Below the pieces are notes generated by a model. That model saw nothing but the letters and a program-made list of their open reading frames with translations, ran no database searches and was not told where the DNA came from. 64,000 bases of DNA from Chlamydiales bacterium (lineage in GTDB: Bacteria > Chlamydiota > Chlamydiia > Chlamydiales > JAAKFR01), in the NCBI GenBank assembly GCA_022601445.1, contig JAJACP010000003.1, positions 68,556-132,555 of the forward strand. The letters are read 5' to 3'. Below are positions 635-8,237 of the stretch, piece by piece. Position numbers and translations under genes: made by a program. Position 1 is the stretch's first letter. Each line of letters opens with the position of its first letter.

Positions 635-1681
635 TTAGGTCCAGGTGAGATTTCCTGCCGTTTGGTACTCGGTCACGCGCGTTTCGAAAAAGTTTTTCTC
701 CTTGTTCAAATCGATTGTTTCACTCATCCAAGGGAAGGGGTTTTTCGATTGATAAATGGCTTTAATCCCGATCCGCTCCAGACGGCGATCGGCAATATGC
801 TGCACATAATCACGGAACATGGAAGCGCGCAGTCCTAAGATACCTGTAGGTAGGCAATCTTCTGCATAGGCGATCTCAAGCTCTACAGCTTCTTTAATGA
901 GCTCAACAATGTGCGCTTGAAACTCTGGTGTCCAGAGCTCAGGATTTTCCTCTTTAATTCCATTGATCAAATCGATTCCAAAGTTGAGGTGAATCGTTTC
1001 GTCACGGAGAATATACTGATACTGCTCCCCGATTCCGGTCATCCGATTTTGCCTTTGAAAGGAGAGAATCATCACAAAACCGCTGTAGAAAAAGATGCCC
1101 TCCATGATCAAGTAGTAGCCAATCAGATTTTCCAGAAATTTTTGTGCTCCTTCAAAAGTCTTTGTGGTAAAGCCCTCTTCTAAAACATCAGCTGTGAGTT
1201 TCATCTCAAAGGCATCTTTGTTTTTGATGACAGGGATTTCGTTATACATGTTAAATACTTCCCCCTCATCGAGTCCAAGCGACTCGCAAATATAGAGAAA
1301 CGTGTGCGAATGGACGGCCTCTTCAAAGGCTTGACGGAGCAAGTACTGCCGCGCTTCGGGGTTGGTGATATGGCGAAAGATAGCCAGAACGATGTTATTT
1401 CCTACCAGACTCTCAGCTGTGCTGAAAAAGCCCAGGTTACGCATGATTACGTGCCGCTCATCTTCAGATAAGGCATTGGATTTCCAAAGCTCGATATCTT
1501 TAGACATGGGCACCTCGGTCGGCAGCCAGTTATTCGCACATCCATTGAGATAGTGTTCCCAAGCCCAGTTGTATTTCAAAGGCATGAGTTGATTGACATC
1601 GACTGTGTTACAGTTGATCAGCCGCTTCTCTTTAACGTTGACTCTTTTTGCTTCCGCAATGTCTTCTTCTAATGCTAACAT
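635..1681 (-). CDS. nrdB: Ribonucleotide reductase small subunit, class Ic (Mn/Fe R2c type)
   Basis: Motifs [28 protein letters not shown] (Phe at the radical-Tyr position), MEGIFFY, RDETIH, C-terminal [10 protein letters not shown]. Start placed at ATG 1681 (MLALEE); the ORF track extends to 1729. Confidence 0.95.
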
Positions 1682-1700
1682 TTTTACAATCCTTTTTTTA

Positions 1701-4700
1701 TTATTGACAACTCTCGCAACTCTCATCATCTAGACTACACGCTTTAGGTGTTTCTCTTTCTACGACCACACGGCTGGAGGCCGACTCGCTTTTCATCCAA
1801 CGAGGCTGCAGCCCCCGTTTGTTGATATCGGTGGTCGACTTTTCAATTTGTGTCGCCCCGAGTGAACGAAGGTAGTAGGTGGTTTTTAAACCTTTTTTCC
1901 AGGCCATCATGTACATGTCGTTCAACTTCTTCCCACTCGGTTCAGCTAAGTAGAGATTGAGCGACTGTCCCATGTCAATCCACTTCTGCCTGCGGCTACC
2001 ACACTCAATCACCCAGTCGGGCTCAATCTCAAAAGCGGTTAAAAAGACCTTTTTAATCGAATTGGGGATCCGATCGATCTCTAAAATCGAGCCGTCAAAG
2101 TATTTGAGATCGTCAATCATCTCGGCATCCCATAATCCATTCGCCTTCAGTTTATCTACCAGGTAAGGGTTGAGGACGGTGAACTCACCTGAGAGATTGG
2201 ATTTCACAAACAGGTGCTTGTACATCGGCTCAATTGACTGCGTCACACCTGTGATGTTGGAAATGGTAGCTGTGGGGGCAATGGCCATCGTGTTACAGTT
2301 ACGCATCCCATACTTGCGGATGGACTCACGGACAGGCGTCCAATCCATCCTTGCTGAGGTGTCCATTTCGTGGAATTCTTCGCCCCGCTCTTGCGTAAGC
2401 AAGCGGATGGAATCCATGGGTAAAATGCCCCGTTCCCACTTAGATCCTTTGTAGGTCGAGTAGGGACCTCTCTCCTTGGCAAGCTCACTCGAAGCTAAAA
2501 TCGCGTAGTAAGAGATCATTTCCATGCTCTCATCGGCAAACTCAACCGCTTCATGACTGGCGTAGCTGATGTCGAGCTTGTAGAGCGCATCTTGGAAGCC
2601 CATCATTCCCAATCCGATGGCACGGTGACGCAGATTAGCGCGCTTGGCCTCTTCGATCGGATAGAAATTGATGTCGATCACGTTATCTAGCATGCGGATC
2701 GCCGTGCGCACAGTGGAAGCGAGTAGCTCTTGATCGATTTTTCCGTCCCGCACATGGGCGGGCATGTTCACCGATCCCAGGTTACAGACAGCCGTCTCTT
2801 CTACCGAGGTATTGAGTAGAATTTCTGTGCAGAGATTGGAGCTGTGCACTACACCACAATGATCTTGAGGGGAACGGACATTCGAGGGATCTTTGAACGT
2901 GATCCACGGATGGCCTGTTTCGAAAAGCATACCGAGCATCTTGCGCCACAGTTGTAGCGCTTCTACTTTTTTAAAGTGTTTGATTTCACCGGTTTCAGTC
3001 ATTTTCTCATATTCGCAATACCGTGTTTCGAACGCTTTGCCATAGAGGTCATGTAGATCAGGGACATCGTTAGGAGAGAAGAGGGTCCACGTCTCTGCTC
3101 TTTCGACCCGTTTCATAAATAGATCGGGGATCCAGTTGGCGGTATTCATGTCGTGTGTACGCCGCCGCTCATCGCCCGTATTTTTTCTCAGCTCGAGAAA
3201 ATCTTCGATATCGAGGTGCCACGTTTCTAGGTACGCGCACATCGCTCCCTTCCGTTTGCCACCATTGTGCGCTAGACCAGCGGTTGTCATGTAAGAGGCG
3301 TCTCCTTCTACCTTTAAGTCAAAGACAAAGGGAGTCACCTCACAGGTTTCCTTTTTCTTCAAACGGGTAAACAAGTAGCCGTTATAAGAGAGCCAGTTTT
3401 GCTTGGACACCGGCTTACAGTTGACGCGTGAGGCAAGCTCAGGAACTGCCGGAATCCGTACATCATAGCAGCGCATGGTTCCCTTAAAAGGAGCAGATGA
3501 GCCATCGCTCCTAGTGCCCACATGATCATAAGAGCGTGTCCGTGCATTTCCTGCAGTTGGAACACCCAAGCGAAGCATTTGATAGCGCAGCCCCTCTGCC
3601 AAAGCGCGTGATGTGTTGGAAAAAGAGATCTCTGAGCCTCTTGAGACATTTCCATCCGTTTCTATAAGACCTTGCACAAGAGCCAAGGTTTGTGCGGGAG
3701 GGAGATGGGATAGGCGCGGCGCAATCCGTTTTTTCCCGCTCTCATCGTAAAGATCATCGTGGGTGAAGGGGAGAGTGCTCTCTCCGCTTCCTATAATGCG
3801 TCCAGAGGTTCCATCCCGCACAGCTCCACGGCCAGAGGCCCAATGGATCTGCTGATAGGTTTCCCCTCGCCCATTTTCCCAGAAGTGGATTCCACGCGCT
3901 TGTAGATAGGCGCGGACAAAGGCTAGGTGTGCATCTGTGCTCGGATTACCAGAGACACCCCATTGAGTTTCTTTTTTAGAGAGATGTCCATCACCCAGCA
4001 AAATGCCATAAAGGCGTGCATCTTCTTCAGTGAGCGCCGGAACAGAGACCACCTCTTTAGGGATCACTTGTGCAATATAATCGCCCTGTTGTAAATCTTG
4101 AGCCTCTACCCATTCGCAGCCCACTTTCTCTTTTTCCAGCCACTTCATGGTGCGTGCAGTTGCTTGCTCCATTGGGACGCCACGAATGGCGTAAAAAGGG
4201 TGGCCAGCTGTAACTGAAATGGGATCAATCGTATGCTTGATGTGTAAAGAGACCATAGGATCTTTTTGGTTATAAGCAAGTTTTTCAGTGACTTCGCGGT
4301 AGCGGCCACTGATACCCAGCACAAGATCTCCTTTTTCAATTTCAGAAATCGGTTGTACACCTTGTGCTGTATAAACAAGTGTATCGGGAGCAAAACACTG
4401 ATTAACTGCTACAGCTGTGTCGTTTGCGACTTTTAAGAAAGGGATCACCCCTTGGCTCCGCCCGTTCGTTCCTTTAATCATTGAGCCGGTGGCCCTAACG
4501 TTGGTCCAATCATTGCCCAAGCCACCTGCCCACTTAGAAAGCTGAGCGTCATCAGAAATGATCTTATAAATATGCGAAAGATCATCCATCACAGTCGATA
4601 AGTAACACGAACTGAGCTGCGAGTGATTCGTTCCCGAGTTAAATAGCGTAGGGGTTGCCGACACATAAAGAAAGCGAGAAAGTGTGTGATAAAACTCAAT

Positions 4701-6059
4701 CGCCCGCTTCTCTTTCTCTTTGCTTTCATTGAGCGCAAGTCCCATGGCCACCCGCATCCACATGATCTGAGGTGTTTCCAAGCGGCGCTCTTGGTGGTGG
4801 ATAAAGTAGCGATCGTAAAGAGTTTGTAGCCCCATATATGTAAAGGTTTGATCGCGATCGATCACAATCGCATCTGCCAGAGCATCCAGATCGAAGCTCA
4901 ATAGATTCGGATTGATCCGCTCATGAGAAACGGCCATGCGGAAGTACTCTTTAAAGTACTTCTTGTAGAGCTTTTTCAGGTTAGGGTGAGTGGCCTCTAC
5001 GCCAATCGTTTCTCTATAGAGCACATCAAGAAGGAGGTTAGAAGCAACGTATGTGTAGGCCGGTTCCACTTCCACTTTGGCCCTGGCGGCCATAATATTA
5101 GCAAGGTCAACCTCGTGATCCTTAATGCCGTCGTAAAAATTCGCAATGGCTTGTGTGACAAGCTCTTCAGGTGAGGTGAGCGTTTCATATCCTTTGCAGG
5201 CATGCGCAATGGTCTTGTGCAGTTGATTTTTGCCGAGCTTATAATGCGAACCATCTTTACGCACGACGGTAAAAAATTGCTCGCCTTCTGTTTCAATATG
5301 ACTCTCTTGCTCAACAAAAAGGGGCTCTTCATCTTGGTGCTTCTCCCGCTCTAAAGCGCGCTCGGCCCGATACAAGATAAAGTCTTTGGCCACCTCATAA
5401 TACCCTCCGCTCATCAACATGTGCTCAATTGCATCCTGCACCATTTCAACGCTCAACACACCACCTGCGTGCGTTTTTTCCATTGCATGATCGACAACTA
5501 GGTTTGTAATGACATTCACCGACTCAATCACATTTTGGGGGGTGGGTCCGACTACTTTAAAGGTGTCGCGAAATCCCCGCTCTATGGCAGAGGCGATTTT
5601 CATCGGATTGAAACGGACAAACGAGACGCCATCACGGCGCAACACTTTTAAGGCGCAGGGTGAGTCTTTTCTCAGTTTTTTGTGTGTATCGCGATAAATA
5701 ATGTAGTCACGCGCCACATCGTGGTGTCCTGTCTCCATTAACTTGACTTCCACAATATCCTGTATTCCCTCAACAGTTAGCAGAGCTCCTAGCGTAGATA
5801 GCTTAACTGACTCCTCGACAACAAGATCGGCAATGAGCTCAATCGTTTGCCGGATCTGCTCTGGGAGTGAATCGGGTTGATGAATCTCTTTTGTATCGCG
5901 AAAGGCCGCCTGTAGGGCGTGCACAATGCGATCACGACGAAACGGAACGAGCATTCCGTTACGTTTTACAATCGTGTATCCTTGGGAAGGGATTGTTTGT
6001 GTCTGCTTTGCCTCTTCCGTTTGGGGTGGGAGTGTGGCTGTTACTTGGTCTTCTCTCAT
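1701..6059 (-). CDS. nrdA: Ribonucleotide reductase large subunit with three N-terminal ATP cones and an intein
   Basis: ATP-cone starts IVKRNG, VLRRDG and VVRKDG; [38 protein letters not shown]; C-terminal CESCQ. Confidence 0.97.
3264..4397 (-). mobile_element. Intein (378 aa) with LAGLIDADG homing endonuclease domain, inserted in NrdA
   Basis: Junctions VAVNQ|CFAPDTLV and AGLAHN|GGKRKGA. Block B VTAGHPF, LAGLIDADG-like LYGILLGDG and [10 protein letters not shown], block F VFDLKVE. Removing it restores the conserved VNQGGKRKGA. Confidence 0.93.
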
Positions 6060-6125: not shown

Positions 6126-6173
6126 ATACTACAGGTTGTGTCGTTCGCGCTTATGAAATACTATATATAGTAC
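6126..6173. promoter_or_regulatory. Tandem NrdR boxes upstream of nrdA
   Basis: ATACTACAGGTTGTGT (6126-6141) and ATACTATATATAGTAC (6158-6173) fit the consensus acaCwAtATaTwGtgt. Their starts are 32 bp apart, typical of NrdR box pairs. Confidence 0.85.
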
Positions 6174-7829: not shown

Positions 7830-8237
7830 CTACTGGCCTCCGCCTCCGCCTCCGCTACCACCTGCTGCGGCAGCAGCTGCGGCAGCACCACTTCCACCAT
7901 CACCAGCTACCTCGCTTGAAGATGAAGTAGAAGATGAGTCATTTCCACTATTAGAAGTAGAAGGTTTGCGGATACAGCGTGCGGAGGCAGCTGACATGGC
8001 TAGCATGAGCAGGGCGGCACCAGGGCCTACAAGAGCGGCACCACCGACTGTGCCTAAAGCTGAGGCAAAAGGCGCTACGCCACTAAGAGCAAGAGCGCCG
8101 ATGATGATTGCAGCAATGGCTGTGATGGCTGCTAGGCTAATTGTGACCTTAGAGGTCGCACATGATTGGGCACGTTGTGCAGGAGCACTTTGAGTGCAGC
8201 TACGCAGCGCAGATAAAGGGTTACAAGAAGCAGTCAT
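7830..8237 (-). CDS. Inc-like (bilobed hydrophobic domain) membrane protein, paralog A
   Basis: ~50-aa hydrophobic hairpin (TISLAAITAIAAIIIGALALSGVAPFASALGTVGGAALVGPGAALLMLAM); S/A/G low-complexity tail; RBS AAGGAG. Confidence 0.65.
   Translation of the reverse strand: MTASCNPLSALRSCTQSAPAQRAQSCATSKVTISLAAITAIAAIIIGALALSGVAPFASALGTVGGAALVGPGAALLMLAMSAASARCIRKPSTSNSGNDSSSTSSSSEVAGDGGSGAAAAAAAAGGSGGGGGGQ

Follow-up and report, generated by a model that had tools for sequence, protein, structure and literature searches.

An nrdA intein of a Chlamydiales bacterium with glycine in place of the +1 nucleophile, its relatives and its possible route of splicing

The DNA examined is a stretch of 64,000 nucleotides (nt) from a Chlamydiales bacterium (assembly GCA_022601445.1, contig JAJACP010000003.1, positions 68,556 to 132,555), referred to here as the window. 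On its minus strand, at 1701..6059, lies nrdA, which encodes the alpha subunit of class I ribonucleotide reductase (RNR) and is interrupted by an intein. The open reading frame (ORF) is free of stops, as a first-pass annotation of this DNA had stated, and specifies a precursor of 1452 amino acids (aa), or 1074 aa once the intein is excised. Comparison with the NCBIfam equivalog NF009029 gave 1629.5 bits (cut-off 1350), the intein being the sole interruption of a full-length match, and Pfam models identified two ATP-cones, the all-alpha Ribonuc_red_lgN domain and a Ribonuc_red_lgC barrel domain that is split in two. The N-extein (4398..6059, minus strand) comprises 554 aa and ends in AVAVNQ, and the C-extein (1701..3263, minus strand) comprises 520 aa plus the stop.

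The junctions, the domains and a predicted fold delimit the intein as 378 aa (3264..4397, minus strand; precursor residues 555-932) running from Cys1 to His377-Asn378. A span of 3261-4400 had been assigned to it earlier, which equals the intein proper together with Gln-1 and Gly+1. At the N-terminal junction the DNA reads GTT AAT CAG / TGT TTT GCT CCC (VNQ/CFAP; slashes mark junctions) and at the C-terminal junction GCG CAC AAT / GGT GGC AAA CGG (LAHN/GGKR), exactly as first described, with the GGT codon at 3261..3263 (minus strand) encoding Gly+1, the first C-extein residue. On the same strand, the block A region with Cys1 is located at 4368..4397, block B (VTAGH, containing T63 and H66 and followed by P67) at 4191..4220, the first and second LAGLIDADG motifs at 3981..4019 and 3645..3686, and blocks F and G (D360, Y369, H377 and N378, with the C-terminus TTAGLAHN) at 3264..3332. 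Pfam LAGLIDADG_3 matched the intein with an E-value of 2.4e-9, and this match includes the second motif; Hint_2 and Intein_splicing matched below their cut-offs, as did PT-HINT (19.4 bits, cut-off 27.7), a model that we take to cover bacterial intein-like (BIL) domains. An AlphaFold2 model, generated with 43 family members, had the bipartite intein fold (pLDDT 92.7, pTM 0.90).

A search of the intein sequence against PDB chains returned no match at E <= 0.01. At the level of fold, the best PDB matches of the model were the canonical LAGLIDADG class 1 inteins PI-SceI (1EF0/1VDE), Tli and Pho VMA (7QSU/7QST) and PI-PfuI (1DQ3), with Foldseek E-values from 6e-19 to 8e-13; I-DmoI was also matched. 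These inteins have the same block A, B, F and G residues but carry Cys, Ser or Thr at +1, where the nrdA intein has Gly. Cys1, the block B T-x-x-H, the terminal HN, the modelled Hint fold and a clean in-frame insertion are therefore all class 1 features, and only the +1 residue departs from that class. The Cys1, TxxH, HN, LAGLIDADG domain and Gly+1 listed by the first-pass annotation were each recovered in the translation and domain scan. Assignment to class 3 was rejected, as Cys1 is present, block F:4 is Asp360, the residue before HN is Ala376 and not Thr, and there is no WCT triad. By sequence and modelled fold the element is a genuine intein, composed of a Hint splicing domain and a LAGLIDADG homing endonuclease of predicted nuclease activity.

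The insertion divides the motif NQ/GGKR exactly between Gln and Gly. The last 120 aa of the N-extein align to residues 324-442 of PDB 5IM3, a class I RNR large subunit, and the first 120 aa of the C-extein to residues 443-562, such that the flanks are contiguous in that structure (442 and 443); Gly+1 aligns to residue 295 of Escherichia coli R1, from which the C-extein alignment to that protein starts. The QGGxR stretch is specificity loop 2 of RNR, and these alignments place the intein within it as had been proposed. Four intein-less nrdA alleles of the same genus read NQGGKR unbroken and are identical to the joined flanks of the window's gene (intein-free site ...GTTAATCAG/GGAGGAAA...), indicating that Gly+1 is the native residue of the host. 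Clean excision plus ligation would thus be expected to restore a normal enzyme.

The distribution of the +1 residue was examined by searching 5.8 billion proteins with the intein region, which produced 979 matches at E <= 1e-3. Among the matches listed (the best 120 of 979), HN/GGKR[KL]G[AS] was present in 120/120 homologues, which were 63-90% identical over the intein and came from sources named as Rhabdochlamydiaceae, Chlamydiota, Verrucomicrobiota, Thioalkalivibrio, Thiothrix, Azotobacter, Methylococcus and others. In genomic DNA, Gly+1 was found in every parsed copy from 45 other genomes, a count that covers all copies except five more distant or truncated loci (L039-L043), which were unparsed. 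The tabulation of +1 residues at this site that the first-pass annotation had recommended thus gave Gly in all 120 listed close homologues and Ser among more distant relatives. Across the copies compared, Gly+1 is a family trait.

Selection on the intein was estimated from the same-genus copy in genome G057, with one alignment per part. The nonsynonymous (dN) and synonymous (dS) values for the intein were 0.036 and 0.69 (dN/dS 0.053), and dN/dS of the flanking exteins (~1000 codons) was 0.018; by this estimate, the intein is under purifying selection. These results bear on whether Gly+1 might be an assembly error, an escape route left by the first-pass annotation, or the intein a dying element in a pseudogene. 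A few related copies do contain stops or frame breaks (G131, G392, G388, G274 and G619), but Gly+1 recurs in all 120 listed homologues and in the 45 other genomes, the ORF of the window is intact and dN/dS is low. Both explanations were rejected for the window's copy, and an artefact or decay must be regarded as exceedingly improbable.

More distant relatives were sought in a HMMER scan of 1.84 billion cluster representatives, which gave 1929 matches at E <= 1e-3 and 320 at E <= 1e-10. Among the 150 matches listed, 65 could be parsed at both junctions, all at the same Q/ site; 32 were Gly+1 (GG[KRVN]), 16 GGG and 17 Ser+1. An alignment of 180 inteins was then assembled from 147 Gly+1 rows of the window's clade, 16 GGG rows and 17 Ser+1 rows, leaving out the mis-parsed P0095 and P0120, rows of <280 aa and those that did not parse to a terminal HN. 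Five of the 120 close matches fell under the last of these filters, in each case through a regex artefact; HN/GG is present in all 120. Cys1, H66, H377 and N378 were invariant (180/180), D360 was conserved in at least 96% of every group, T63 in 93% of the Gly+1 group and Gln-1 in 100% of the aligned inteins. The residues for thioester formation (Cys1, Thr63, His66 and Asp360) and for Asn cyclisation (His377 and Asn378) have therefore all been kept.

Two homologues, P0163 and P0186, have Ser at position 1 yet Gly at +1 (VNQ/SFTGDT...VHN/GSKR and VNQ/SLIIGT...VHN/GGRR). An oxyester followed by aminolysis is chemically harder, so these would be test cases or dead copies. Extra Hint or PT-HINT Pfam matches were observed in P0039 (2297 aa), P0086 (1920 aa), P0111, P0112 and P0118 (~1700 aa) and in locus L052 of genome G593 (a 1680-aa frame); these long nrdA genes may have room for one or two further inteins.

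The Ser+1 inteins (i.e. P0167 and kin) occupy the Q/SG site of eukaryote/virus-type RNRs, which is the same site, and are 30-38% identical to the window's intein with the same catalytic residues. A quick, unrooted IQ-TREE tree was built for 89 inteins, namely the window's copy, every fifth close match and all parsed distant inteins of at least 280 aa. In it, 15 Ser+1 inteins grouped as a single clade (support 100) and a further two as a pair nested within Gly+1 rows, and Gly and GGG inteins were spread over many deep lineages; two rows labelled 'GS' are parsing artefacts. Within the host family of the Ser+1 inteins (glutaredoxin-fused eukaryote/virus-type large subunits), all 117 fetched proteins were parsed. 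All 26 inteins at the site keep Ser+1, although Gly occurs in 59 of the 91 intein-less alleles (NQSGK in 32, NQGG[KR] in 20 and NQGGGK in 39). The Ser clade thus behaves as if it depended on Ser in a host family where Gly is common, and the window's clade never has Ser (147/147 Gly).

Loop 2 of the eukaryote/virus-type enzymes takes the forms NQSGKR, NQGGKR and NQGGGKR, which differ in length by one residue; at this site, the inteins of the P0167 host family interrupt the Ser form and those of related giant-virus contigs the GGG form. IMG/VR contains 29 loci that encode relatives, 26 of which were parsed. Twenty of the 26 read DQ/C...HN/GGGKRNGSF, many of them on contigs labelled GVMAG, and five were Ser+1; one parsed relative, on a 159-kb contig, was 56% identical. 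A search of a cultured-phage collection found no close relative; its only 10 matches were remote (24-36% identity) and belonged to other genes or to a single record without annotation.

Two positions covary with the +1 residue in the aligned inteins. Pro follows the block B His in 147/147 Gly+1 rows and in 12/16 GGG rows but in 0/17 Ser+1 rows, to which the nested pair belongs. At block F, the His present in 15/16 GGG and 14/17 Ser rows is replaced by Glu or Ala in 132/147 rows of the window's clade, the window's copy having Ala. P67 and the block F residue therefore appear to track the +1 residue. Some canonical inteins also carry His-Pro; for this reason, and because there are only two independent Ser+1 lineages and four of the 16 GGG rows have no Pro, the Pro signature is kept as a lead only; the block F correlate is likewise a lead.

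Distribution was assessed in genomes sampled by taxon (400 per set); a single-protein search of genome contigs gave just 11 loci. The intein was found, at E <= 1e-10, in 53/400 sampled genomes of the phylum, in 1/5 other genomes of the genus and in 4/22 of the family, so that the supposed rarity of inteins in Chlamydiae does not extend to this one. It was also found in 14/400 genomes of the proteobacterial class around a Giesbergeria metagenome-assembled genome. Between the two phyla, the intein was as conserved as the exteins (median identity 0.58 versus 0.54); within each phylum it was somewhat less conserved than they were (0.65 versus 0.72 and 0.60 versus 0.70). The acidic residues of both LAGLIDADG motifs and their Gly are nearly invariant in the family alignment (43 sequences). 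The patchy distribution, the cross-phylum identity of the intein and the near-invariance of the acidic residues form a pattern that fits an active, mobile homing element. Copies in six genomes (G002, G282, G104, G240, G355 and G259) are without ~18 residues around intein positions 292-310, in the endonuclease part, which suggests endonuclease erosion in some chlamydial lineages.

Additional RNR genes were sought in intein-bearing genomes. The genome of the window (1.93 Mb, 98.85% complete) contains no second PF02867 locus besides nrdA and no NrdD, which answers the earlier call for a search for a second RNR, and it has no further Intein_splicing match outside nrdA. In a chlamydial sample of 13 of the 52 other intein-bearing genomes, RNR matches occurred solely at the intein locus and NrdD was absent (13/13). 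Four of these genomes (G131, G392, G388 and G274) have the locus broken by stops or frame changes, for example at G131:C1:1149201-1151948 and G392:C1:602039-604744 (genus g59). This could reflect sequencing error, which is possible because three of the four chlamydial assemblies consist of very few contigs, or genuine decay of the single RNR gene. All 14 intein-bearing proteobacterial genomes were examined. The intein-bearing nrdA is the only RNR in five of them (G465, G486, G571, G619 and G740; 2.3-4.5 Mb), although nrdA of G619 has two TGA codons near its 3' end. In G699 the sole extra RNR match is a 137-aa fragment, seven genomes have a second class I/II RNR gene (G402, G546, G593, G661, G692, G757 and G789) and G791 has NrdD.

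With no other RNR, cells that make their own deoxyribonucleotides depend on the intein-bearing precursor, and an intein in the only RNR gene means that this precursor must yield active enzyme. It might be supposed that the intein is left unprocessed, or is processed only under certain conditions, and that the host tolerates it in loop 2 or uses it there for regulation; conditional splicing has indeed been described for other inteins in papers on that subject (PMC6195587, PMC11409957). It is, however, hard to see how the sole RNR could function with 378 aa permanently lodged in loop 2, and the invariant Cys1 and His-Asn argue for chemistry at both junctions; we regard this alternative as very unlikely.

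In each of the three accepted intein classes, the final attack comes from the side chain of a +1 Cys, Ser or Thr. In the nrdA intein, which has no such nucleophile, canonical trans-esterification is impossible, and since the host needs the enzyme, the precursor must mature without this step. The aminolysis route proposed for type A BIL domains (as outlined in PMC4031507) offers a way to do so. In a first step, an N-S acyl shift at Cys1 would generate a Gln-Cys thioester. Cyclisation of Asn378, assisted by His377, would then cut the C-terminal junction and free the alpha-amine of Gly+1. Finally this amine, kept beside the thioester by the folded precursor, would attack it to form a normal Gln-Gly peptide bond. 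Gly has the least hindered amine and would be positioned by the folded barrel, making this a favourable case. On balance, we consider it somewhat probable that the intein splices in this manner, by thioester formation, Asn cyclisation and aminolysis by the Gly+1 alpha-amine; ligation of the exteins itself, and the order and chemistry of the steps, are what we infer from the conserved residues. The non-canonical splicing proposed by the first-pass annotation is upheld in so far as a real intein without a +1 nucleophile lies in an intact gene that is the genome's sole RNR and requires non-canonical maturation; the choice between ligation by aminolysis and a cleaved two-piece enzyme, both of which it had put forward, is one that sequence data cannot make.

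Several observations weigh against ligation by aminolysis. In the accounts of BIL domains given in PMC4031507 and PMC7664689, those without a +1 nucleophile yield mostly cleaved products, and one BIL spliced only once Cys had been placed at +1; ligation without this nucleophile is thus known to be an inefficient process. Cys1 and His-Asn would be just as conserved if cleavage at the two junctions were all that counted. Most GGG and Ser+1 relatives retain the block F His, which has been lost from most of the window's clade, as described above. The host is probably intracellular, and the essentiality of RNR there is an assumption. Literature searches found no experiment on any member of the family.

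The main rival is double cleavage without ligation. The thioester would be hydrolysed and Asn378 would cyclise, leaving NrdA nicked in loop 2, as two non-covalently associated fragments of 554 and 520 aa. The prevalence of cleavage among BIL domains that have no +1 nucleophile (as summarised in PMC7664689 and PMC4031507) is in keeping with such an outcome, the conservation of Cys1 and His-Asn fits it as well as it fits splicing, and the two halves would co-fold before cleavage. Against this, the nick would put charged termini at the equivalents of Q294 and G295 of E. coli R1 within loop 2, residues that read effector and substrate, and every newly homed host would have to bear the nick in its only RNR. 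The same-site Ser+1 homologues, moreover, hold canonical splicing residues and presumably ligate. A nicked two-piece NrdA is accordingly judged unlikely, though it is the alternative to be taken most seriously.

Ligation might instead proceed by other chemistry, through a relay from a remote C-extein nucleophile (e.g. Cys+9) or through activation via the side chain of the invariant Gln-1. The complete conservation of Gln-1 and the presence of Cys at +8 or +9 in many hosts of the window's clade (e.g. GGKRKGAMC and GGKRKGAC) are in favour of this. Gln-1 and the Cys are, however, features of the host that are found in intein-less alleles too, and several Gly+1 hosts have no nearby Cys (e.g. GGKRNGAFAA and GGGKRNGSFAI). 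Cys+9 was rejected as a family-wide nucleophile on account of its absence from several Gly+1 hosts, and other chemistry of either kind is rather improbable.

A broader proposal is advanced tentatively and at slightly less than even confidence: that a large, old and horizontally mobile intein family of bacteria and giant-virus contigs routinely ligates without a +1 nucleophile efficiently enough to supply the only RNR of free-living cells, and that it is marked by the block B His-Pro and, in the window's clade, by loss of the block F His.

The surroundings of nrdA were also inspected. Directly downstream lies an nrdB-like gene of 364 aa (635..1729, minus strand), which was taken from the ORF list and identified from its translation alone; its first 29 nt overlap the end of nrdA. 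In the iron-ligand stretch, EEAVHSHTF, Phe occupies the position of the E. coli R2 radical Tyr, which is the mark of the chlamydial class Ic R2. A perfect, AT-rich palindrome of 14 nt, TACTATATATAGTA, is a candidate NrdR box located at 6159..6172, ~100 nt upstream of the nrdA start; the weaker ATACTACAGGTTGTGT at 6126-6141 is ~32 nt off, a spacing that would fit tandem NrdR boxes. An nrdR gene is present in the genome (G000:C2:17058-17492), but a degenerate box pattern gave one match versus 0.86 expected by chance, which is not significant. The NrdR boxes noted previously thus retain the regulator gene and the palindrome on their side and do not rise above chance as a pattern. Further along, a 135-aa ORF (window 7830-8237, minus strand) is hydrophobic in its middle part and has a tail with abundant Ser, Ala and Gly.

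Relatives of the nrdA intein have been recorded before. NrdA proteins of Azotobacter salinestris and Methylococcus sp. (named as in their source) contain LAGLIDADG inteins of the same family at the same site, 66% identical over the intein and reading HN/GGKR. The inteins in nrdA of A. chroococcum NCIMB 8003 and also of A. vinelandii DJ were annotated in PMC4465626, and the RNR intein of Methylococcus capsulatus Bath in PMC517821; the passages on these inteins leave the missing +1 nucleophile or the +1 residue unremarked and report no splicing test. A similar Gly+1 intein in Azotobacter, which the first-pass annotation had mentioned as an InBase entry, is in substance borne out, as NrdA of A. 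salinestris reads HN/GGKRKGA and nrdA inteins of Azotobacter are described in the part of PMC4465626 that deals with them. The main text of PMC5784728 does not mention CroV, RIR1 or glycine, though its supplements may tabulate +1 residues, and full-text literature searches found no paper on Gly+1 RNR inteins, yielding genome papers and reviews instead. InBase may hold an entry 'Avin RIR1 BIL', which would mean that curators had noticed the feature.

Ligation in the absence of a +1 side chain is, to our knowledge, on record for BIL domains only, and there as a minor activity. Type A BILs, such as that of Clostridium thermocellum (Dassa et al. 2004 and Aranko et al. 2013, as cited in PMC4031507 and PMC7664689), share with the nrdA intein Cys1, the C-terminal His-Asn with no nucleophile after it and the proposed route. 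As characterised in PMC7765530 and PMC4031507, however, BILs are small, have no endonuclease, are not mobile and reside in the variable parts of bacterial proteins that are not conserved, where they may serve for cleavage. The nrdA intein, unlike these, has 378 aa and an endonuclease, occupies an invariant position in an enzyme that is needed and shows a patchy, homing-like spread. It is an intein by context and architecture, which fails the class 1 definition at +1 and resembles a type A BIL there, and by location, size, endonuclease and mobility it is not a BIL.

New in this work are the same-site Ser+1 clades, the Gly+1 copies in giant-virus contigs, the Pro after the block B His and the block F residue that track Gly+1, the census of proteobacteria with a sole RNR and the dN/dS estimates. 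Hundreds of copies of this mobile intein have no +1 nucleophile although the enzyme they interrupt is needed, and nature therefore appears to rely on the alternative route. If ligation is true, these inteins would add a fourth mechanistic class, would explain homing into sites without a nucleophile and would supply for engineering a splicing domain that leaves Gly at the junction with no need for Cys, Ser or Thr. If the RNR works instead while nicked in loop 2, this would be unexpected for RNR allostery.

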